Shown here piece by piece: positions 164 through 10,190 of a stretch of DNA of 10,190 bases. The notes beneath the pieces were generated by a model that had not been told where the DNA came from, made no database searches, and was given only the letters and a program-made list of their open reading frames with translations. Position 1 is the stretch's first letter. Each line of letters opens with the position of its first letter. Both the position numbers and the translations under genes were made by a program. The DNA is from Oligoflexia bacterium (lineage in GTDB: Bacteria > Bdellovibrionota > UBA1018), in the NCBI GenBank assembly GCA_043732485.1, contig JAYTHP010000190.1, positions 1 to 10,190 on the forward strand, read 5' to 3'.

Positions 164-1063
164 TTACTGCAGCGGCTTAGGTGGCGCCGGGGGCTGCGGA
201 CTGAGCAAAGGCACCTTTGCGGCCGCGGGGCCACCCGTCTGCGCAGGCGGCGTCCTGACTGCTACTGCTGGCGGAGGAGGAGCAGCTGGAGGGGTTCCGG
301 CGCTGGTGGGGTCCTCAGCTGTCACCGTAAAGGATTGATTTTGTGCAGGTTTATTGCCAGTTTTAATGAACTCTACTGCAGCGTCATCATTAGACTCGCC
401 GCCCGGGTTTCCAGCCGCTTGCGCCTGATCCTTAGGAGGTGGCAGCTCGGAGAGATGATTTTCAAGAGGGCGCCACAAACCAAAGGGGTTGGCGGGGGCC
501 ACTAAATCGAGCGTGCCTTGAGCGCTGATTTCGGTTTTACGGAAGAAAATCCAAGGGCTCCAATCGCGGTAACGCTCCATGGCAAACCTGAGATAGCGGG
601 TGTCTTGGAACTGGGTTAAAAACTCCCGGGCCAGCGGGGCTAAAAATTCAAAGGTTTCAACGGTCTTGCGCTGGCGCTCTTCTAAATAGACTTCATCGCG
701 CAAGTCGAGCTGAAGCCCCAGCAACTTGCCATAAAAGCACCAGTGATAAAGGGACGGATCTTCGTGCACTAGCCTGGCAAGCGCAGCCTTGCGCCTAGCG
801 TAACTCAAGCTCACTTGCTCCATCCGGTGAAAGGGACCATCACACGACAAGAGCACATCATCTAAGGAAGGGGCTTCGGGCCTTAAAAAGAGATTTTGCA
901 AATCCCCCAGCTGGCTGGTCGCCGGGTGAGGGACGCGCACATAGGAAGGGGGCAAGAAACTGGCGGCGCCTTCGGGACGAATCTCACCGGTTTGGCATCC
1001 CATAACGCCACTCCAGAGCAGGACCACTACCAGCAAGCCTTGGCTTAAAGTTTTGTTTTTCAT
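164..1063 (-). CDS. Hypothetical lipoprotein (~299 aa) with helical core and Pro/Ala-rich C-terminal tail
   Basis: Long ORF (track start GTG 1081; ATG at 1063 preferred). N-terminus MKNKTLSQGLLVVVLLWSGVMG-C has basic n-region, hydrophobic h-region and lipobox-like VMGC (Cys23). Two further Cys (LSCD, HWCF) could form a disulfide. No family recognised. Confidence 0.8.
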   Translation of the reverse strand: MKNKTLSQGLLVVVLLWSGVMGCQTGEIRPEGAASFLPPSYVRVPHPATSQLGDLQNLFLRPEAPSLDDVLLSCDGPFHRMEQVSLSYARRKAALARLVHEDPSLYHWCFYGKLLGLQLDLRDEVYLEERQRKTVETFEFLAPLAREFLTQFQDTRYLRFAMERYRDWSPWIFFRKTEISAQGTLDLVAPANPFGLWRPLENHLSELPPPKDQAQAAGNPGGESNDDAAVEFIKTGNKPAQNQSFTVTAEDPTSAGTPPAAPPPPAVAVRTPPAQTGGPAAAKVPLLSPQPPAPPKPLQ

Positions 1064-1395: not shown

Positions 1396-2730
1396 ATGAC
1401 ACACGGAGCATCTTGGAAAAAAGCTGCAGTAATTTTGACGCTGAGCTTTCCATTAGGGGCAAGCAGTGGGGAGAGCGATCCTACGGCTGCGACGGCCGCA
1501 CCTCAAGCGGCGACCGCAAACTCGCCTGTCAGCGCACCTGATGCGACCACTAGCCTACCCCTACCGTCCAATGCTCCGCTTGCAGCAAGCCCGCAAGACC
1601 CTAAGTTTGCGCCGCCGCTCCCGCCTCCGGGGCCCTTCAGCGCGCCGCCGCTGCCGATGCAGCAAGCCTACTCGACTGCGGCCAATGACGCGCCAGCGCT
1701 TGGCACCCCGCCTACTGAGGAGTCCAAAGAGCAACAGCGTAATTTTTATGAGGTTTTAGACGATGTTTTGGGGGATTTTGAATTTGATCTGAAAAACGGC
1801 AACGTGGTGGGCTTGGCCGAAATAGCCCTACGCAACATCTCCGTCAGCGAAAACGTCCCAGAAAGCTTCAAAAGCCACCTCGAGCCCCTGATTACCGAAA
1901 GAATCCTCAAGACCACAAAAACCCGCATGCTGCAATGCCTGCCTTGTAAGGCCAGAAAAACTAGTCTCCGAGGCGATCAAGTGGTGATCTCTTCGCCACA
2001 AAACTCGCAAGAGGAGCTCAGTCGCATAGCCCACATGGCCGGCATCAGTCATTTTCTAGACCTCGCCTTCTTGTACCAGCCAAGCGGGATTGTCCTATCT
2101 TTTTACATCACCGACGCCGACTCAGGCAGTGTCATTTGGTCCAGGACGTACAACTCCGAGACCTCGCGCGCCTCGGCCTTCAGACGCGGCGTCGATTATA
2201 GCCAAATCGATCAGGCCCGCAGCAAGACGGAATACTCGCCCACCTTGCAAGGTCGGGTGATCTTAAGCTTTATCTCTGAGCCCTCGCTCCCCAGTAAGCA
2301 AAATTGCCTCGGTCTGGGCTATCGCCTGGTGGAGCGCTACGATAACCGCAAAAAGGAAATTGGTTTTGAGGCTAATTACAAGACCGACGCCACCACGATT
2401 GTCAGCTCAGCCAATCAATCAAGCCTGGGTCTTTATAACTTTAAGAGTATCAATCTCACGCTACTCTTCTTGCATACCTGGAACTTTATTGGCGAAGAGG
2501 AAAACTATAACGCTGTTAGGACGGCTTTTACGCTGGGCGTGGGTGGCACCTATGCTTCGGGATTCTTAGGAGGCCTGGTGCGCGGGAGCTTTGAGTTCCG
2601 GCTCGCCAAGCATTACGCCCTTTCCTTGTTAGTCGGCTATCGCCCTCCTGCCGAGGCCTTTGTCGGGACCACCTCGTCTGGCACCGTGCAAGGCTTAGCA
2701 CTCGGCGCAGGAGTGAATTATCTTTTTTAA
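1396..2730 (+). CDS. Exported outer-membrane protein (~444 aa): signal peptide, Pro-rich linker, CsgG/FlgO/TolB-N-like alpha/beta domain, C-terminal beta-barrel
   Basis: SD AAGGAG 9 nt before ATG 1396 (track start TTG 1360). Signal peptide WKKAAVILTLSFPLGA. Middle domain patterns IALRNISV..., LSRIAHMAGISHFLDL...LSFYITDADSGSVIWSRTY are typical of CsgG/FlgO/LpoB-like folds. The last ~160 aa are amphipathic strands ending LGAGVNYLF (terminal-Phe BAM signal). CDS is secure; domain labels are by eye. Confidence 0.75.
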   Translation: MTHGASWKKAAVILTLSFPLGASSGESDPTAATAAPQAATANSPVSAPDATTSLPLPSNAPLAASPQDPKFAPPLPPPGPFSAPPLPMQQAYSTAANDAPALGTPPTEESKEQQRNFYEVLDDVLGDFEFDLKNGNVVGLAEIALRNISVSENVPESFKSHLEPLITERILKTTKTRMLQCLPCKARKTSLRGDQVVISSPQNSQEELSRIAHMAGISHFLDLAFLYQPSGIVLSFYITDADSGSVIWSRTYNSETSRASAFRRGVDYSQIDQARSKTEYSPTLQGRVILSFISEPSLPSKQNCLGLGYRLVERYDNRKKEIGFEANYKTDATTIVSSANQSSLGLYNFKSINLTLLFLHTWNFIGEEENYNAVRTAFTLGVGGTYASGFLGGLVRGSFEFRLAKHYALSLLVGYRPPAEAFVGTTSSGTVQGLALGAGVNYLF

Positions 2731-2773
2731 CCCACTGGAAAACACCTTAAAATCGGGAACGCCTCAAGGCCCA

Positions 2774-2787
2774 GTGTGTGTGTGTGT
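2774..2787. repeat. (GT)7 dinucleotide microsatellite, intergenic
   Basis: gtgtgtgtgtgtgt read directly. Confidence 0.85.
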
Positions 2788-2950
2788 TTGAATGCGAGAG
2801 TGTCCCACAAAAAAGCGTCCCCTGTGACAAGAACGCATCGGAAAGCGCTCTGACAGAGCAGAACAGACGAAGCAAAGTAGGATCGGAGAAAACAGGACCT
2901 TAAAAGCCTGAGTGGTCGGTTTGAAGGAGAGAGAGAAAGAGAGAAAAAAA

Positions 2951-3799
2951 ATGGATTTTAAAAGTCAAACACCCCCCCCGCATCATAGACCGCGCTCGCA
3001 ACTCCGCCCGCAACCCCGCCCGCTTACACTCAGCCTTGCGCTCGCACTCGCACTCGTCAGCCTTCGTTGCGCAGGCGGCGGCGTGAAATCAACTGACACC
3101 TCAGTCCCGATTAACAATCCCTTTGGCAAAACCTTTAACCCGGCCGCCCAAATCAAAGATCCTTTAATTTTACGCAGCCGCCAAGGCGATCGTTCCTGGG
3201 AGTTAGAAATCCCACAAAATCGCAGACAACCCGGAGACTTCGCCATTCCCTTTGCTCCGGCCCAGGCGCAAGGACAACCCCCCAAACCATCGACGTTCTC
3301 CTCAAGCCTAAGTCAATCGGACGGTGCCAGCGGCAATAGCACTGACGGCAGCGCAGCAGAGGGCACCTCCTATCAGGGCGCCCAACCAGGGGTATCGGAC
3401 CGGGAAATTGTGCAAGAATTAGGGCGGGGCTCAGAATCACTCAACATGAGGCGCGCGGCAGTGGAGCAGGAGCTTGATTTAGTGACCAGTGACGACTCTG
3501 ACCCGCGTGTGGGGCAAAAAAGTTACCTGGGCGATCTTGATCACATCAAGCAGCTGTTTCGTGCGCAGCGCTTCGAGGCGGCCCTCATTGAAACCGATTT
3601 GATGATTCGCACCTATCAAAATGACCCAAAACTGCACGAAATGCGCGGCACTTTGCTCAGTCGCTTAGGGAAAATGGAACTCGCCATTCGCTCCTGGCAG
3701 CAATCGCTGCATTTGAATCCCAAAAATGAAGCCCTCAAACAATTTATTCAACGCGCCAATGCTCGCTTGATGAGCCAAAGCACTGTGAGGAATCCATGA
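2951..3799 (+). CDS. Exported (possibly lipo-) protein with C-terminal TPR repeats (~282 aa)
   Basis: ATG 2951 after a purine-rich tract (track start GTG 2912). Hydrophobic LTLSLALALALVSLR-C (Cys40, non-canonical lipobox). C-terminal TPR pattern LFRAQRFEAALIE...PKLHEMRGTLLSRLGKMELAIRSWQQSLHLNPKN. Stop overlaps the next start (ATGA 3796-3799). Confidence 0.8.
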   Translation: MDFKSQTPPPHHRPRSQLRPQPRPLTLSLALALALVSLRCAGGGVKSTDTSVPINNPFGKTFNPAAQIKDPLILRSRQGDRSWELEIPQNRRQPGDFAIPFAPAQAQGQPPKPSTFSSSLSQSDGASGNSTDGSAAEGTSYQGAQPGVSDREIVQELGRGSESLNMRRAAVEQELDLVTSDDSDPRVGQKSYLGDLDHIKQLFRAQRFEAALIETDLMIRTYQNDPKLHEMRGTLLSRLGKMELAIRSWQQSLHLNPKNEALKQFIQRANARLMSQSTVRNP

Positions 3800-6270
3800 A
3801 CCACCAGCACCACCCCCACCAGCCCTCCGGCAAACCTTTCACCGCAAGCGCCCGCCACTTCTTGAGTCTCCTGAGCGCTGCCTACGGCCCTACTTATCTC
3901 CTGCTCCTTGGAGGCAGTCTGTCGCTCTTGTTGCCGCAGGTGACTTGGGCACGCTTTAAGCCAGAAGAGGCGCTCAAGAAGGAATACCAGCTCAAGGTAC
4001 AAAAAATTGTCGAGCCGATCCTCGCCAAATACTGCCCTGACCAGTGTAAGTTGCTGGGGGTGACCATCCAAGTCGATCTCGCCCACCCCGACAGCGTGCA
4101 ACCGGGCTTTGATGACCTCAACGTGCTGGAGAAAACTGAGCTTGAACCCGCAGCCGGGAGCTTGAAGATTCTCATGGACGAAAAACTAGGCCCCAACTCG
4201 CGTACCCGGATCAATGATTTGATCCAAGAGTACTTAGACACCTTCAATTTCCATATCGCCATTGAGAACATCACGCAGCATTTTCCACAAACCCAAGGGA
4301 CGGAAGCAAAAATGCTGGAGATGCGCCAGCGCATCTCCAAGCGCTTCAGCGATGTGATGGAAGAAACCCTGCAGCAGTTTTGTCCCAAGACCTGCTTACT
4401 GGGTGAAGTCGAGCTCCTCACCGAGCGCATCACGGGCGATGAGTTGCAAAACGGTGATCCCAATGAGTTCTACCAGGAAGGTGATTACGCCATCAGAATC
4501 AAAGACTTACGAGCTTCAATCTTGATGGATGACCGTTTGAACCCGCAAGAGCAAGCCAATTTGCTGGAGATCTTCAAGGTCAAGGCTCATGGCTTCAAGC
4601 ACGTCAGCATCAACGCACGCGCGCTTAAGTTTCCCAAGAATGCCTCAAGCCTTGAGGCGGCCAGCGAGCTGGGTGGGGGACAAGGCCAAGTCGGTGAAGG
4701 GCGCGGCGGGCTGAGGGAACAAAACACGGTGAACGGCACGACTGAGAAGAACTTGAACTCCAAGAGTGAGCAAAAATCCGTGAATGAGACCAATCTCTCG
4801 AGCAAAGCGGCGACTGAGAAAAAAGAAAGTCTGCTGAATGACACGAAAACCCAAGAATTCAGTCAAGACACCCGCAAGGAAAAGCTTGAGCGCTATGAGA
4901 AAATCGAGCGTGTTGAAAACGGCGACGCCGTGCAAGCGCAACTCAAGACCTTCCAGTTTTATAGCTTCCTGTTTGCAGCCTCGCTGCTGGCCATGCTCTT
5001 GTTCATCGCGCTGCAAGTCTCAAGCGTCAAAGCCCTCAAAGCGAAGCCTGAGACCACCCCGCTTCCCTATTTCCCGCTGCCTGCTCCCCTCCCTCACGCT
5101 GAGGAGAAGAGCGGTAAGACCAATGAGGCCAAGTCCGGAGCCGAGTCGTCGTCGTCAGCCGCCAGGAATAAGAATCGCCCGCTACTCACCCAGTACGAAG
5201 TGGAACGCTTGTACAACGAGCTGGTCTTGATCTTCTCGGAGCAACCCCGGATCGCCAAACACGTCTTTAGCCGCATTTTAACGGAAGAAGGTATCGAAGT
5301 GACCGCCCAGTACATCGATATCTTTGGGGAAACGATCGTACTCGATCTCTTGCGCGATCCCGGGCTGCAGGCCAATATGAACGAATTAGTGGAGTATTAC
5401 GGTCAACATCCCATGGAGTTAACGGCTGATCAGAAGCTTGAGCTGTTGCGCAAGCTCGAGAACCGCACGGTGGCAAGCAAACTGGCCTTACACCGCGGCC
5501 CGGCCTCCCAGCTGTTTGATTACCTCTCGGAGCTGGACGGTCTGCAGATCTGGGAGCTGATTCGCAGTGAGTCGCTGACCGTGCAATCGATCGTCTTGAC
5601 GCAAGTCGATATGCAAAAGCGCGCGGCGGTGTTTGCCAAGATTGATCCAGAAATGCGCATCCAACTGCTGACCGAACTGACCCGGGTGGATTACTTGCCG
5701 CGCGACTATATCTTTCAAGTGGCCTTGGCCTTGAAGCAAAAGCGCTCTGCCAATCCGAAACTCAACACTGAGGCCTTACCAGGCTCCGAAGTGCTAGTGA
5801 ACTTGCTAGAGAAAACTGGCCATGAGATGCAACGCACCGTGCTGCGTGAGTTGCAGCAATCCAGCCCTGAGAACGCCCAGATGGTGAAGAACAAGCTGCT
5901 CAGCATTGAGACTCTCAAGTACTTGCGCGACGGCCAGCTCAAGGAAGTGGTCTTAAGTCTCAAGCACGATGAGATTGCGCAATTTCTCTCAGGCACCAGC
6001 CCAGAGATGAGCGAGTTGCTATTTAAGAAGCTACCAGAAGACCTGGTGCTGGACTTGCGCGAGATGGTGGAGTCGATCCCGAGCGTTAACCACGAAACCT
6101 ACCTCGCGTTGGAGCGTAAACTACTGAACCGCATGAAAGTCTTGATCCAAGCAGGCCAAATCAACCTGTTTGAGACTAATGACCGGATGTTTGGCGCCGA
6201 CTTTACGCTCTTTAGCCCAGGGATCCCGAGCGGTAGCGGCAACGGGGCGGCGGAGAAAGTGGTATCATGA
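3796..6270 (+). CDS. Membrane-anchored FliG-domain protein (824 aa), probable FliF-like/FliG-like fusion rotor protein
   Basis: N-terminal signal/anchor (YLLLLGGSLSLLLPQVTWA). Two ~116-aa repeats each with CPxxC, ILMD and FP. TM at res ~388-406 (nt 4957-5013). C-terminal ~250 aa aligns by eye with FliG middle and C domains (FDYLSELDGLQIWELIRSE..., PGSEVLVNLLE, NPENA-like SPENAQMVKNKLLSIETL, ERKLLNRMKVLIQAGQINL). Directly upstream of motA/motB. Confidence 0.8.
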   Translation: MNHQHHPHQPSGKPFTASARHFLSLLSAAYGPTYLLLLGGSLSLLLPQVTWARFKPEEALKKEYQLKVQKIVEPILAKYCPDQCKLLGVTIQVDLAHPDSVQPGFDDLNVLEKTELEPAAGSLKILMDEKLGPNSRTRINDLIQEYLDTFNFHIAIENITQHFPQTQGTEAKMLEMRQRISKRFSDVMEETLQQFCPKTCLLGEVELLTERITGDELQNGDPNEFYQEGDYAIRIKDLRASILMDDRLNPQEQANLLEIFKVKAHGFKHVSINARALKFPKNASSLEAASELGGGQGQVGEGRGGLREQNTVNGTTEKNLNSKSEQKSVNETNLSSKAATEKKESLLNDTKTQEFSQDTRKEKLERYEKIERVENGDAVQAQLKTFQFYSFLFAASLLAMLLFIALQVSSVKALKAKPETTPLPYFPLPAPLPHAEEKSGKTNEAKSGAESSSSAARNKNRPLLTQYEVERLYNELVLIFSEQPRIAKHVFSRILTEEGIEVTAQYIDIFGETIVLDLLRDPGLQANMNELVEYYGQHPMELTADQKLELLRKLENRTVASKLALHRGPASQLFDYLSELDGLQIWELIRSESLTVQSIVLTQVDMQKRAAVFAKIDPEMRIQLLTELTRVDYLPRDYIFQVALALKQKRSANPKLNTEALPGSEVLVNLLEKTGHEMQRTVLRELQQSSPENAQMVKNKLLSIETLKYLRDGQLKEVVLSLKHDEIAQFLSGTSPEMSELLFKKLPEDLVLDLREMVESIPSVNHETYLALERKLLNRMKVLIQAGQINLFETNDRMFGADFTLFSPGIPSGSGNGAAEKVVS

Positions 6271-6384
6271 CCCATCTCACCTTATGCCACTCAGGCACAT
6301 TGAGTCGAGCTTTGGGAAGAAACCAGACAAGAACAACAATCTATTAACCTGCAGCAGCGGCACCTTTTGTTGGGAGATTTTCAC

Positions 6385-7176
6385 ATGAACTATTCGTCAC
6401 TCCTTGGGATTATTTGTGGTTTAGCCACCTTTTTTGGCTCCTTGCTCTCTACCGGCTCCAGCATCAGGTTTTTCATCGATCTCCGCGGGATCCTCATCGT
6501 GGTCGGAGGTACACTCTCAGCCGCCAGCATCTCGTTTCCGATTGCCAAGGTGTTAGCCCTCATGAAAGTCTTCTTCCTCAGGGTCTTAGGCCGGCATCAG
6601 ATTGATCGCCAAACCATGATCACCCAGTTCCTGGAAATCAACAAGCGGCTTGCAGCCTCCGACTCAGGAGCGGTAGAAGGCATGCTGCCGCAACTCAACC
6701 ATGAATTCTTCAAGGAGGCTGTGCAACTCGTTCACCAGGGGGTGTTAACGGCCAGTGAGATCCAACGCACGCTTGACACCCGCTTAAAAACCATCGAGGT
6801 GCGCTATTTACAAGAAGCCAACATGTTTCGGGTGATTGGTCGCTTTCCTCCGGCCTTTGGCTTGCTTGCCACCACCTTGGGGATGATCACCTTATTGCAA
6901 AAAATTGGTGAAGCCGATAGTCAAAAAATGATCGGTCCTGCCATGTCTATTGGTTTGATTGGCACGCTGTACGGGATTAGTCTCGCCAACTTGATGCTGA
7001 TCCCCATTGCTGAGAATCTCACCGAGCGCACCCACGAAGAGGTGCGGTTACGTAAAATGATCATTGCAGGCGCCGTCTTACTGAAGAATCAAGCAAGCCC
7101 CCTCTTGCTGCGCGAACACCTCAACTCCTACCTACTCCCAGGCGAGCGCGTGACGCGTCAGAAGGCTGCAGCATGA
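6385..7176 (+). CDS. motA: Flagellar-type stator A subunit MotA/PomA family (263 aa)
   Basis: SD GGGAG (6372-6376) before ATG 6385. Motifs ILIVVGGT (TM2), PAFGLLATTLGMI (TM3), IGPAMSIGLIGTLYG...ANLMLIPIAENL (TM4). ATGA overlap with motB. Confidence 0.95.
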   Translation: MNYSSLLGIICGLATFFGSLLSTGSSIRFFIDLRGILIVVGGTLSAASISFPIAKVLALMKVFFLRVLGRHQIDRQTMITQFLEINKRLAASDSGAVEGMLPQLNHEFFKEAVQLVHQGVLTASEIQRTLDTRLKTIEVRYLQEANMFRVIGRFPPAFGLLATTLGMITLLQKIGEADSQKMIGPAMSIGLIGTLYGISLANLMLIPIAENLTERTHEEVRLRKMIIAGAVLLKNQASPLLLREHLNSYLLPGERVTRQKAAA

Positions 7177-8081
7177 GCGAAAACTCTCCCTTCGGTGGTT
7201 CTTCTATTTCTGCTAAAAAAGACTCCAAGCTGCAACTCATGCCTCCAGTAGCGGTGCATGAGTTGGAAGAAGCCGAACCGCGCGCGAGCGAAGGGGATGA
7301 GTCCAATTGGCTGATCTCCTACGCCGACATGATGACGCTCTTGTGTGGTTTTTTCATCATGCTGTTTAGTCTCTCCACCCTAGAAGAGAAGAAATTTGAC
7401 TCCTTCAAAGAAGCCATGTCCAAACAAATGGGTGGCAAGTTTGAAGCCAGCAAACCCGCCACCTTAAGTCCGCCCCCCCCCTCGGTCACTGCCCCACCGC
7501 CTGCTAAAGCCGCAGGCGTGGTGATGCCCACCCACTTAGAGCGCTTAGGCGACATCCTCAAAAGTGACCCCGAGCTCACCCACAAAGCCCGGGTGACGAC
7601 GGATCCAAAAAGCCTAATGATTACCTTCCAATCGACCCTATTTTTTGAAACCCTCAGCACCCAGCTCACCCCGCCTGCCCATCACCTGCTTACTCGCATC
7701 ATGGAGCAAATCCAAAAATACGAGAACCAAGTGCATACTCCTTTTAAAATCATTATTGAAGGCCATACCGACAGTAGACCCATCACCTCGGGGATCTACC
7801 CCAGCAACTGGGAGCTCTCTGGCGCTCGCTCCGCCCGCGTGGTCAGGCTGTTTCTTGAGAAAAACTTCCAACCCACCCAGCTCACGGCCATCGGCTACGC
7901 CGACACCCATCCCGAGGTGAACGCCCGCACCAAGGACGGCAGCTGGAATGAAGCCCTGCTGATCCAAAATCGCCGAGTGGTGATTCGCATCATCGAAGGG
8001 CAAAATGAGTCGATTCCCTATCCGGCAGCACTCGCCGCCGCCCCTGCCCCGACCGTCAAAGCCTTACCGCAAAAACAGTAG
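7173..8081 (+). CDS. motB: Stator B subunit MotB/PomB family with OmpA-like peptidoglycan-binding domain (302 aa)
   Basis: NWLISYADMMTLLCGFFIMLFS TM with the essential Asp (D52, nt 7326-7328). OmpA-C motifs IIIEGHTD, YPSNWELSGARS, GYADTHP, NRRVVIRI. Confidence 0.96.
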   Translation: MSENSPFGGSSISAKKDSKLQLMPPVAVHELEEAEPRASEGDESNWLISYADMMTLLCGFFIMLFSLSTLEEKKFDSFKEAMSKQMGGKFEASKPATLSPPPPSVTAPPPAKAAGVVMPTHLERLGDILKSDPELTHKARVTTDPKSLMITFQSTLFFETLSTQLTPPAHHLLTRIMEQIQKYENQVHTPFKIIIEGHTDSRPITSGIYPSNWELSGARSARVVRLFLEKNFQPTQLTAIGYADTHPEVNARTKDGSWNEALLIQNRRVVIRIIEGQNESIPYPAALAAAPAPTVKALPQKQ

Positions 8082-8095
8082 GCAAATATTGCCCC

Positions 8096-8137
8096 TTGAC
8101 CAGATCTAAGCCTTTTGTGATTATTAAATAAAAGGAG
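8096..8137 (+). promoter_or_regulatory. Candidate sigma70 promoter and ribosome-binding site for the 8148 gene
   Basis: TTGACC (8096-8101) - 17 nt - GATTAT (8119-8124); SD AAGGAG 8132-8137. A small hairpin GGCAA-ATA-TTGCC (8081-8093) lies just upstream. Confidence 0.45.
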
Positions 8138-8147
8138 ATCAAAATCA

Positions 8148-9233
8148 ATGCAATGGAATTGCCCACAATGCGGAGTCTACCTCACCCTACCCCAAGAGTC
8201 ACTCGGAACTGGCTGGGCATTTTCCCGGTGTTATCAATGCGCGGGATTTGCACTGATTCGTCGCACCGAGGTTAACGTCATTAAAGTCGACCGCGCCCCG
8301 CCAGGCGAGCGCGTACTGCTGCCTGAAGCCCTACGTCCTGGGAAGTTTGCAGCCGCCGCAGCCTCCTCCTCCTCCTCCCCCCAAAGCAACGCGCACGCAA
8401 CCTCAATCCCGTTGCTCCGTGAATTTAACTCACACTTGATGCCAGAGACGACCACCACTACGCCGCTATCGTCGCCTGCCCATCTTAGATCGCTTGGAGG
8501 ATCTCTTGGAGTCAGCTTCTCCGAGCACGGCGCAACTGCGGACGAAAGCCACCTTCACAGCCCTCCCAAACTGCTCACCGCTGGTTCTCCCGTCGGCCAG
8601 CCCGAAACCCGCGGCGGTAGCTCGGCCAGACGCTACCTCACCTCCTGGATGTCGCTTGCAATTTATGCCTCAGGCTTCGTGTGCGTCGGGAGCGGCGCTT
8701 ATCTCGCCATCCAAGTGCAAAACTATATTACCCACCTGATGCCAACCCAGCGCCACCCTGCCGCAGCCGTCATCAGCAGTAACCCTAACAACAGTGCTGC
8801 CCACAAACCGGGGCCAAGCCAGGCTCTCGCGCCCTCGTCGCTAGCCGTTGCTCCGACGCTTGCTCCTCCGCTGCTTGACCCCAAACAAGGACAACAAGTC
8901 GCCATGATTACCGATAAAATGCAGCAAAGCGCCATGGCCCCCATCCCCGCTGACAGCAACCACCCGCCCACGCTGCTCCCACCCACACCACCAGCCTCCG
9001 CTCCCAAAGTGTGGATCAGACTTCAAGGCGCGCAACTCCACCTCGGACCAGGGACCCAGTCCGCCGTGGTCGGACAAGCCGCAACCGGGCAAGCCTACCA
9101 GGTGTTGCAAGCGACCGAGTCGGGCTGGTCTTTCCTCCAAGAGGATCCCCAAAACCCATCCCTGAGCGCCAACGCCTTGCCGCTCCAAAAAGGTTGGGTT
9201 AAGAACGAGTGGCTAACGCACTCGCACCCCTAA
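8148..9233 (+). CDS. Bitopic membrane protein: N-terminal zinc ribbon (MJ0042/zinc_ribbon_4-like), TM helix, Pro-rich linker, C-terminal SH3b-like domain (361 aa)
   Basis: Strong SD. CPQC-x19-CYQC at the extreme N-terminus. TM WMSLAIYASGFVCVGSGAYLAI (nt ~8646-8711). C-terminal AQLHLGPGTQSAVVGQAATGQAYQVL...GW...KGWVKNEWL matches the bacterial SH3 pattern (NLRxGPG...GW...GWV). Confidence 0.85.
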   Translation: MQWNCPQCGVYLTLPQESLGTGWAFSRCYQCAGFALIRRTEVNVIKVDRAPPGERVLLPEALRPGKFAAAAASSSSSPQSNAHATSIPLLREFNSHLMPETTTTTPLSSPAHLRSLGGSLGVSFSEHGATADESHLHSPPKLLTAGSPVGQPETRGGSSARRYLTSWMSLAIYASGFVCVGSGAYLAIQVQNYITHLMPTQRHPAAAVISSNPNNSAAHKPGPSQALAPSSLAVAPTLAPPLLDPKQGQQVAMITDKMQQSAMAPIPADSNHPPTLLPPTPPASAPKVWIRLQGAQLHLGPGTQSAVVGQAATGQAYQVLQATESGWSFLQEDPQNPSLSANALPLQKGWVKNEWLTHSHP

Positions 9234-9809
9234 GCCTACGGCGACGTTTTTATCGTCGGCTGTTCACGAAACTTAAGCGCATGGCGGCGGCAAGGAGCGG
9301 GATGGAGTGAAACCCTCACCCGCCGCAGTCTGATTGCTTGTGATCACACTGTCAGGGGCCTGAGAGGGGAGAAGCGCTTGGCAGTTGCGTGGTAAACTGC
9401 CCATATAGCCCTGTTTCGGAAAATTCGATTTTCCTTTAGCCTCCTAGCGCAGGTAATCCCCGGGACGGTAGGCCTTAAGCGCTTGGCTTTCTTTACGATT
9501 CACTCGGATTACGACCTTCTCTTAGGACTGATTTTAGGCCCTAACCCTCTGATCTGATTCAGGAAAAATAATTAAAAAACTGCCTTACTCCTGTTATTCT
9601 ACCAAATCTACCAAATTCTTTCAAAATTAACATTTTGGCCATCTTGCTCGCCGGTTTCTTTTTTGACGCAAGGAGTCATGCTTAACTGAACCCAAGGTAA
9701 GCGACCGACAGCATATCAGCCCCACCCCCCGCTTTCCATCCGTAAACCACTAGAAATGGAGTCATTAAATGACCCTGTCACACAGCAGGGGGTTGGCCGC
9801 CGACAGGTG

Positions 9810-9937
9810 GGTGAACTAATTACTACCGCTGCGAAGGATCTCTGGTGAGGGACCGGCGGCTTTTTAGGGGATCGGAGACTGGGGTCTTTGCACGCCGTTA
9901 GCACGACGGGTGGGCGAAGCGGGGTTGCAGTATGGCA
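9810..9937. repeat. Direct repeat copy 1 (>=128 bp)
   Basis: Matches 10063-10190 with 5 substitutions and no gaps in 128 nt. Confidence 0.95.
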
Positions 9938-10021: not shown

Positions 10022-10062
10022 CGGCTCTTATCGAGTCTATGGTATCGAGAGGCCCTGCTGTC

Positions 10063-10190
10063 GGTGAACTAATTACTACCGTCGCGAAGGAGCTCTGGTG
10101 AGGGACCGGCGGTTTTTTAGGGGATTGGAGACTGGGGTCTTTGCACGCCGTTAGCACGACGGGTGGGCGAAGCGGGGTTGCAGTATGGCA
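10063..10190. repeat. Direct repeat copy 2 (truncated by window end)
   Basis: 123/128 identical to 9810-9937; period 253 bp. Confidence 0.95.

Follow-up and report, generated by a model that had tools for sequence, protein, structure and literature searches.

The 10,190-nucleotide contig JAYTHP010000190.1 of an Oligoflexia bacterium, referred to here as the window, carries six co-directional open reading frames (ORFs; positions 1396 to 9233) that combine a FliF-FliG-like fusion protein with a MotA/MotB pair and with proteins of the cell envelope. The window is one entire contig (C190) of the host genome (G000; 2.58 Mb, 89% complete). All six ORFs were confirmed in the sequence, each reading frame is intact, and the ATGA stop/start overlaps at 3796 and 7173 that a preliminary description of this DNA had reported are present. 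That description had found no genes for flagellar type III secretion, rod, hook, FliM or FliN; likewise, the ORF, Pfam and NCBIfam lists contain none of these and no further flagellar gene within the window. Absent from its gene list was the divergent and usually linked orf0. The form of the cluster found here and in its close relatives is termed subtype 1. The features are:

164..1063, minus strand: orf0, divergent lipoprotein-like gene; usual companion of subtype 1, not core
1396..2730, plus strand: orf1, predicted outer membrane (OM) protein with a periplasmic TolB_N/LpoB/CsgG-type domain, an 8-stranded beta-barrel and a terminal Phe
2951..3799 (frame open from 2912), plus strand: orf2, TPR protein and probable lipoprotein (N-terminal Cys conserved)
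3796..6270, plus strand: orf3, 824-amino-acid (aa) FliF-FliG-like fusion
6271..6384, no strand: short gap, in most relatives the site of a gene for a cyclic nucleotide (cNMP)-binding protein of about 168 aa; none here
6385..7176 (frame open from 6367), plus strand: motA, flagellar-type, PomA/MotP-like
7173..8081, plus strand: motB, with the transmembrane (TM) Asp (WLISYAD), a plug and an OmpA-type peptidoglycan-binding domain
8148..9233, plus strand: orf6, zinc ribbon, TM and periplasmic SH3 domain; accessory, in subtype 1 only

The fusion protein, its stator genes and envelope partners

The orf3 product begins with tandem ring-building-type domains (aa 56-161 and 167-280) and a disordered linker, followed by a TM helix (around aa 388-406), a FliF-C-like helix (aa 467-489) and the N, M and C domains of FliG (aa 497-794). 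FliG_M (E 7e-7) and FliG_C (E 6e-11) both exceed their Pfam cut-offs, and hhalign matched the protein to the host's own FliG at 97%. Against TIGR00207, the equivalog of the stand-alone, approximately 335-aa cytoplasmic FliG, it reached 48 bits at a cut-off of 227. FliG_N gave no Pfam hit in the window fusion and is assigned by structure prediction. The AlphaFold (AF2) model (mean pLDDT 74.5, pTM 0.33, so that the placement of the domains is unreliable) contains two tandem alpha-beta-beta-alpha-beta domains, a disordered linker, a single TM helix and a helical cytoplasmic part. In Foldseek searches it matched FliG (E 1e-8) and the FliF MS-ring (E 2e-5), and all 20 matches at E <= 0.001 were FliG or FliF. 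Structure comparison of the model placed aa 166-280 on the FliF S-ring (Z 11.5, rmsd 2.1, 98 residues aligned), aa 497-794 approximately on FliG 4-326 (Z 14.3, rmsd 19.8 owing to hinging, 281 aligned), aa 701-789 on FliG_C (Z 11.8, rmsd 1.6, 89 aligned) and aa 703-790 on MotAB-bound FliG_C (Z 11.3, rmsd 1.7, 88 aligned). The protein is therefore predicted to combine FliF S-ring-like periplasmic domains with a complete FliG, which strengthens the earlier proposal that the locus supplies its own rotor.

Domains 1 and 2 match each other in hhalign (95.7%); judged by this sequence likeness, the two periplasmic domains are a duplication. Domain 1 can nevertheless be overlaid structurally on RBM2. 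The FliF-C helix of the window fusion gave a weak match (E 0.11-0.13), and the connection to FliF runs through its relatives: hhalign linked domain 1 to subtype 2 (93%) and weakly to subtype 3 (16%), subtypes 3 and 4 matched over their full length (99.6%), and aa 27-279 of the subtype 4 (Bdellovibrio-type) fusions aligned with FliF 233-551, comprising RBM3, TM2 and the C-terminal helix (79.8%, E 1.4e-5). Moreover, the metagenome member L193 exceeds the Pfam cut-off of YscJ_FliF_C (PF08345) and also has FliG N, M and C. Together, this chain and these Pfam matches indicate that in this family the rear half of FliF is naturally fused to FliG. YscJ_FliF (PF01514; TM1, RBM1 and RBM2) had no hit in the window protein, and single-domain subtypes align to FliF from aa 233 onward only. 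In most of the homologues scanned, the hydrophobicity of the N-terminus suggests a signal peptide; that of the window protein lies below the threshold. At the other end, 26 of the 51 subtype 1 fusions in alignment A1 terminate in VAGW, VSGW, VGGW or ASGW, possibly a docking peptide, and the window protein in KVVS.

None of 33 aligned fusions has the EHPQ motif that is present in 6/6 ordinary FliGs; EHPQR of FliG is the interface to FliM (PMC7355467). In an unrooted FliG tree without outgroup (39 rows), the six ordinary FliGs stood apart from the fusions (SH-aLRT 96). We take the charges of the torque helix to be R281, D288, D289 and R297 in E. coli FliG numbering. R281 and D289 are named in PMC7564593. 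The subtype 1 torque helix carries Lys or Arg at aa 748 (47/51), an acidic residue at aa 756 (51/51), Glu at aa 757 (49/51) and Arg at aa 766 (47/51), and the helix varies between subtypes.

The stator genes belong to the flagellar families. MotA matches Pfam MotA_ExbB (E 5e-19) and, below the cut-offs, the NCBIfam models for MotP, MotA and PomA (E approximately 1e-36) as against E 6e-4 for TolQ, and the channel Pro and Thr are kept in alignments of the module proteins. MotB has MotB_plug (E 1e-15) and OmpA (E 8e-13) domains and retains the TM Asp; the WLISYAD-type motif occurs in 62 of 67 frames. The window motA forms the longest branch among the subtype 1 MotAs in a tree of 45 rows, which covers about every fifth subtype 1 locus, contains long-branch joins and is compatible with one or several origins of the module stators.

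Among the envelope proteins, orf1 had been called CsgG/FlgO-like. It gave no Pfam hit, CsgG and FlgO domains included, but its AF2 model (pLDDT 88) combines a TolB_N/LpoB-like alpha/beta domain with an 8-stranded OmpA/NspA-like barrel. Foldseek matched the model to TolB (E 8e-6), the OmpA barrel (E 1e-5), LpoB (E 6e-5) and NspA (E 8e-5), and look-alike clusters in the ESM Atlas pointed to LpoB (62-96%) and CsgG (25-74%). Thus, the earlier label named the right superfold without being a specific assignment. The TPR_1 match of orf2 (E 8e-4) is below the Pfam cut-off. An N-terminal Cys is the consensus among its homologues and the strict lipobox pattern occurs in 29 of 73 frames, so that orf2 likely encodes a lipoprotein. 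A CxxC..CxxC pattern is found in 45/45 frames of orf6, whose homologues match SH3_3 and Zn_ribbon_4; in the window the SH3_3 match is weak and below cut-off. The divergent orf0 has a conserved N-terminal GC motif and an ESM Atlas best score of 0.76, and no Pfam or NCBIfam hit of weight. Between fusion and motA, 61 of 80 loci carry the cNMP-binding gene (Pfam cNMP_binding E 6e-18). This gene is lost from the window locus, and the direct junction of fusion and motA recurs in 10 other loci.

Conservation of the module in five gene orders

Scoring of 7999 candidates yielded 209 full-length fusion homologues, the named ones mostly from Bdellovibrionota, and 87 confirmed genome loci, of which the best 80 were kept; adjacency was counted where the flanks allow, and related genomes are not independent. 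In informative loci, adjacency holds for orf1 in 65/65, for motA in 67/68 and for motB in 65/66 cases. For orf2 a strict window gave 64 of 69, and the other five show an orf2 match in a broader locus scan. The synteny that the preliminary description had proposed to check is thus conserved, and both a stand-alone oddity and a misassembled flagellar operon were rejected on the basis of the 209 homologues and their gene order. The zinc-ribbon/SH3 gene orf6, which the preliminary description had listed in the cluster, is not core: it is adjacent in 43 of 60 loci and, like the cNMP gene, was not detected beside subtypes 2-5. A divergent orf0 adjoins in 49/58. Among 301 genomes of the phylum, subtype 1 occurs in 51 of 68 from the host's order and in 0/233 others, one weak match outside the order having proved to be subtype 2. 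Flagellin is the sole flagellar gene among the recurrent neighbours, which include neither export gate, rod, hook or FliM/FliN genes nor a TonB/TolA-like gene; linkage to a cyclase or kinase is not consistent. Homologues of orf1 with no other part of the module nearby (L115, L116, L118 and L120) were excluded from the subtype counts. In L005, orf6 follows directly 3′ of the fusion, where neither the cNMP gene nor motA and motB are present.

The core set of barrel, TPR protein, fusion, motA and motB genes remains linked across five gene orders, and the ring-type domains are kept in every subtype. Subtype 2, in the order barrel-TPR-motA-motB-fusion, is found elsewhere in Bdellovibrionota in two genomes, G059 and G052, in which no match to FliF, FlhA, flagellin, rod proteins or FliM/FliN was obtained; control genomes gave matches. 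The fusion is the sole FliG_C protein of G059, and either genome has one MotA-type gene, that of the module. These drafts are 91% and 89% complete, and misbinning is possible, though gene order and neighbours are common to both. The occurrence of the module in these two genomes supports the flagellum independence that had been proposed for the window cluster. The other 10 genomes of the class gave no FliG-like match. By word index the G059 fusion retrieved no protein but itself, and its relatives were obtained by profile search. Beside the module of G059 and G052 (L084:1-7280 and L117:11600-18000) lie a MIDAS-adhesin-like gene, an OMP_myx_plus-type barrel and a TPR gene, identified by HMM hits in G059 and by sequence likeness in G052, an arrangement that recalls gliding clusters.

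Strong subtype 3 matches (barrel-TPR-fusion-motA-motB) occur in 17/301 genomes; 14 of them have all five genes, two are cut by contig ends and one is without adjacent motAB. Subtype 4 was found in four of five genomes chosen for a second FliG-like match. In G113, G198 and G101 its order is motA, motB, an opposite-strand gene, a PEGA/TPR lipoprotein, a small barrel and the fusion, and a membrane-anchored protein is encoded within this series. The order in G258 is TPR-fusion-barrel-like gene-motA-motB, and this genome has a second fusion without stator. Ten metagenome loci represent the fifth order, fusion-barrel-TPR-motA-motB; three of them show it in full and the others are on short contigs, and orf1 lies 3′ of the fusion in all nine loci that reach that far. 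Of the proteins related to these loci, a cluster member carries the label Bacteroidota and a second protein the label Deltaproteobacteria. Two copies or two subtypes of the module are present in some genomes (L160, that is G226:C83; G258:C98; G164). Very large proteins (approximately 1560-1780 aa) are encoded after the subtype 4 fusions in L175:3556-13501 and L177:11438-19000 and may be surface cargo.

Public databases contain a subtype 4 fusion under the title 'FliG C-terminal domain-containing protein [Bdellovibrio bacteriovorus]'. In strain HD100, Bd3014 (1734 bp), Bd3016 (978), Bd3017 (585), Bd3018 (909), Bd3019 (618), motB2 (960) and motA2 (882) are listed in Table S1 of Karunker 2013 (PMC3627812). 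Bd3014 carries the label hypothetical. The six co-directional genes of L173/L174 measure 1728/1740, 969/960, 576/591, 879/891, 960/969 and 801/810 bp. Taking gene order and size alone, Bd3021-Bd3014 is likely orthologous to the subtype 4 module, and motAB2 (Bd3021/Bd3020) is likely its stator. Bd3019 was rejected as a co-directional member, as its counterpart lies on the opposite strand in L173, L174 and L177. A published Bd3021 primer aligns in register with motA of L174 (4 of 20 positions mismatched) and of L173 (5 of 20), which is weak support because an unrelated site in L179 also has 5 mismatches. According to the RNA-seq values of PMC3627812, Bd3014 (4/5 RPKM, reads per kilobase per million), motA2 (3/2) and motB2 (14/9) compare with fliG Bd3403 (2046/8) and motA3 (332/25); from the fliG pattern we read the two columns as attack and growth phase. 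The near-silence of Bd3014 and motA2 while fliG is high indicates that, in the conditions of that study, expression of the locus does not go together with that of the flagellar genes. The name Bd3014 did not occur in searchable paper text, most subscription journals being outside coverage.

As regards the host, the preliminary description had asked whether a canonical flagellar locus and other motAB pairs exist elsewhere in the genome. G000 indeed has a separate flgB-flgC-fliE-fliF-fliG-fliH-fliI locus together with FlhA, rod genes and FliM/FliN; it also gave six matches to the flagellin family and has two motA genes besides that of the window. A third, very divergent motA-like gene on G000:C220 (L083:6486-8665) has a downstream partner without match to the motB profile. 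Stand-alone frames outside the module encode FliG_C (G000:C19:17503-17811, 151 aa) and, in two other genomes, FliG_MC-like proteins of about 280 aa (L158:6847-7695 and L159:5940-6761). Within the window, three 13-nucleotide tandem units in the divergent orf0/orf1 promoter region (1184-1235) may be a regulator-binding array. Two 131-nucleotide direct repeats (9807-9937 and 10060-10190) are 95% identical, enclose a 20-nucleotide inverted copy and have related copies (approximately 83%) on contig C159, possibly as a small mobile or repeated element; Rfam gave no match at E <= 0.1, the repeat included.

A probable rotary motor outside the flagellum and alternative explanations

We consider it probable that the cluster encodes a flagellum-independent, unswitched rotary motor in which a ring of the fusion protein is turned one way by the dedicated MotA/MotB pair. 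In particular, the related module in two genomes without detected flagellar genes points to a rotary motor with a non-flagellar job. The RBM3-like domains and the stacking of FliG domains would let the fusion oligomerise into an inner-membrane ring; MotB would be anchored to the peptidoglycan, and ion flow would turn MotA5, geared against FliG_C. Since EHPQ is lost, a FliM/FliN switch and hence chemotactic reversal would not be expected. RBM1 and RBM2 of FliF cradle the export gate; without this cradle the single-domain subtypes would have no type III export, rod or filament, and torque would therefore be passed through the TPR lipoprotein to the OM barrel. In subtype 1 the cNMP-binding protein may regulate the motor. 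RBM3 alone is capable of ring formation (PMC11739650). If there is a motor, we tentatively suggest that its output is the moving or presenting of OM-anchored surface proteins for surface contact or motility. This weakest step of the argument is preferred because of the MIDAS-adhesin-like and OMP_myx_plus neighbours in G059 and the very large proteins after subtype 4 loci, which are circumstantial.

A number of observations weigh against this interpretation. The alpha-beta-beta-alpha-beta fold is common, and among the best 1000 Foldseek matches, in which alternative folds for the periplasmic domains were compared, unrelated folds reach Z 9.6 (MamB-CTD) and Z 9.1 (OsmC), below the S-ring match. 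At the sequence level, hhalign found no match between the periplasmic domains of the window protein and a six-row FliF alignment. The R281-equivalent position is acidic in 51/51 subtype 1 fusions, with the acid pair and the Arg kept, and the window copy deviates from its own family at aa 748, 757 and 766. The R90/E98-type rotor-contact motif of MotA is altered: ordinary copies read ARKEG..A.E, and subtype 1 has KK or KR and a later E or D in a divergent helix. Module MotAs form no single supported clade. The fusions of L005, L156 and L175 have no adjacent motAB, and the cNMP gene had no match at E <= 10 in the 89% complete G000 genome. Finally, the flagellum-less carriers are two draft genomes of one divergent subtype, and all 51 close carriers are flagellated (FliF in 50/51, flagellin in 51/51).

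Altered charges would suit a non-rotary transducer of the Tol/Ton kind, in which MotAB turns and the fusion is a scaffold or lever that pulls on the TolB_N/LpoB-like domain of the barrel for remodelling of the OM or cell wall or for export. The likeness of the N-terminal orf1 domain to TolB_N and LpoB and the differences in the torque helix among subtypes fit this scheme as well. However, MotB has a flagellar plug and an OmpA domain rather than an ExbD/TolR domain, MotA scores with PomA/MotP far better than with TolQ, the FliG_C fold is kept with an rmsd of 1.7 to MotAB-bound FliG, and ring-type domains are present in every subtype. We thus regard a transducer of this type as unlikely.

The flagellated carriers could instead indicate a flagellar accessory, either a further set of stators or an outer ring added to an ordinary basal body by docking or co-assembly. 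Flagellin genes lie within 10 kb in 25/80 loci. Judging by its title, Morehouse 2011 reportedly assigns all three motAB pairs of Bdellovibrio to one flagellum. A 2026 review (PMC13689555) does the same, and expression of motA2 and motB2 is altered in fliL mutants (PMC11323537). In favour of a separate motor, FliL Bd1076 in the same study bound MotB3, not MotA2 or MotB2, in two-hybrid assays; these negatives are weak, because the pairs MotA2-MotB2 and MotA3-MotB3 were negative, too. Also against an accessory role, the module occurs where five flagellar families were not found (G059 and G052), EHPQ is lost, the Bd3014 locus is near-silent when fliG is highly expressed, and motAB3 is present in all strains compared while motAB2 is missing in epibiotic ones (bioRxiv 2025.02.19.638989). 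Moreover, cross-talk between stators could yield a swimming phenotype without the fusion being flagellar. An accessory role therefore appears decidedly unlikely.

A mechanosensor or ion-gated signalling hub, in which the load on the OM partner alters stator engagement and is read out via the cNMP-binding and zinc-ribbon proteins, would explain the position of the cNMP gene between fusion and motA, and stator mutants of Bdellovibrio do show altered cyclic di-GMP and lifestyle (PMC11323537). This idea is nonetheless very improbable, given that both readout genes were not detected beside subtypes 2-5, that the cNMP gene is missing in the window and that no cyclase or kinase is consistently linked. 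There is only a slight chance that the family is functional and the window copy is decaying, as its deviating residues, lost cNMP gene and long MotA branch might suggest, since none of the six frames is broken and stop and start codons overlap, the MotB Asp and the MotA Pro and Thr are kept, and 10 other loci show the same direct fusion-motA junction.

The rotary motor remains our preferred explanation, and overall the interpretation given in the preliminary description is partly supported; no outcome that it had named as refuting was encountered. If correct, no flagellar-type motor simpler than this natural five-gene rotor-stator module would be known. The module is relevant to the question of how stators and rotors were first combined, and would offer a small chassis for structural work. 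Its origin may lie in reduction of a flagellar motor, or it may represent, as a living model, a motor that preceded flagella. By the same token, one of the 'three flagellar stators' of B. bacteriovorus would belong to a different machine, an alternative reading of why Bdellovibrio keeps three stator pairs. Through its likely match to Bd3014-Bd3021, the module can be tested at once in a bacterium that is genetically tractable and for which motAB2 mutants have been published.

Comparison with known systems

To our knowledge, a FliG ring that is driven by MotAB outside a flagellum has not been described. A published description of the module was not found in the literature searched, most subscription journals being outside coverage, and PMC13277936 contains no passage on fusions or Bdellovibrio. 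With the flagellar rotor-stator core (FliF MS-ring, FliG and MotA5B2 or PomA5B2) the module shares the FliG N-M-C fold, the RBM3/S-ring fold of FliF, TM2, a FliF-C-like helix, a flagellar-type MotA and a MotB with plug, Asp and OmpA domain. In contrast to that core, the rotor of the module is one polypeptide, in which RBM1 and RBM2 are absent (single-domain subtypes) or a duplicated domain is found (window), with a short beta-collar insert, EHPQ lost and charges changed. It has barrel and TPR partners of its own, no linked export gate, rod, hook or FliM/FliN, and is also present in genomes that gave no match to flagellar genes.

Engineered or selected FliF-FliG fusions, such as a Salmonella deletion fusion and Vibrio FliFG, can form rings (PMC7355467, PMC10941966, PMC11481574). 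Unlike the module, they contain the full FliF within a flagellum, are not natural and lack a dedicated stator operon. A natural FliF-FliG fusion in a non-flagellated bacterium is known from Chlamydiaceae (Bergeron 2016, PMC4768692). As far as the accessible text of that paper goes, it is about 330 aa long with two TMs, an RBM2-like part, no SpoIIIAG-like RBM3 and only a FliG_M-like part, and it is tied to the injectisome with no stator mentioned. Tol-Pal, TonB-ExbBD and AglRQS-Glt resemble the module in combining an ion-driven 5:2 motor with OM partners, and the TolB_N-like domain of orf1 is a further likeness. In contrast to these systems, no TolA/TonB-like transducer was seen in the module, and its stator is of the flagellar type and paired with a FliG rotor. 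A further counterpart is the motAB2 region of B. bacteriovorus, whose gene order and sizes from Bd3021 to Bd3014 match L173/L174 and whose stator figures in print as one of three flagellar pairs.

In summary, the module resembles the flagellar rotor-stator core, yet on the features compared it falls outside the FliG and FliF families and the flagellar system. We are inclined to see in it a second class of MotAB-FliG rotary machine, with a one-gene rotor ring that lacks filament, export gate and switch and turns an OM complex, and of which B. bacteriovorus likely has one at motAB2-Bd3014. The module is real, conserved and apparently unpublished.

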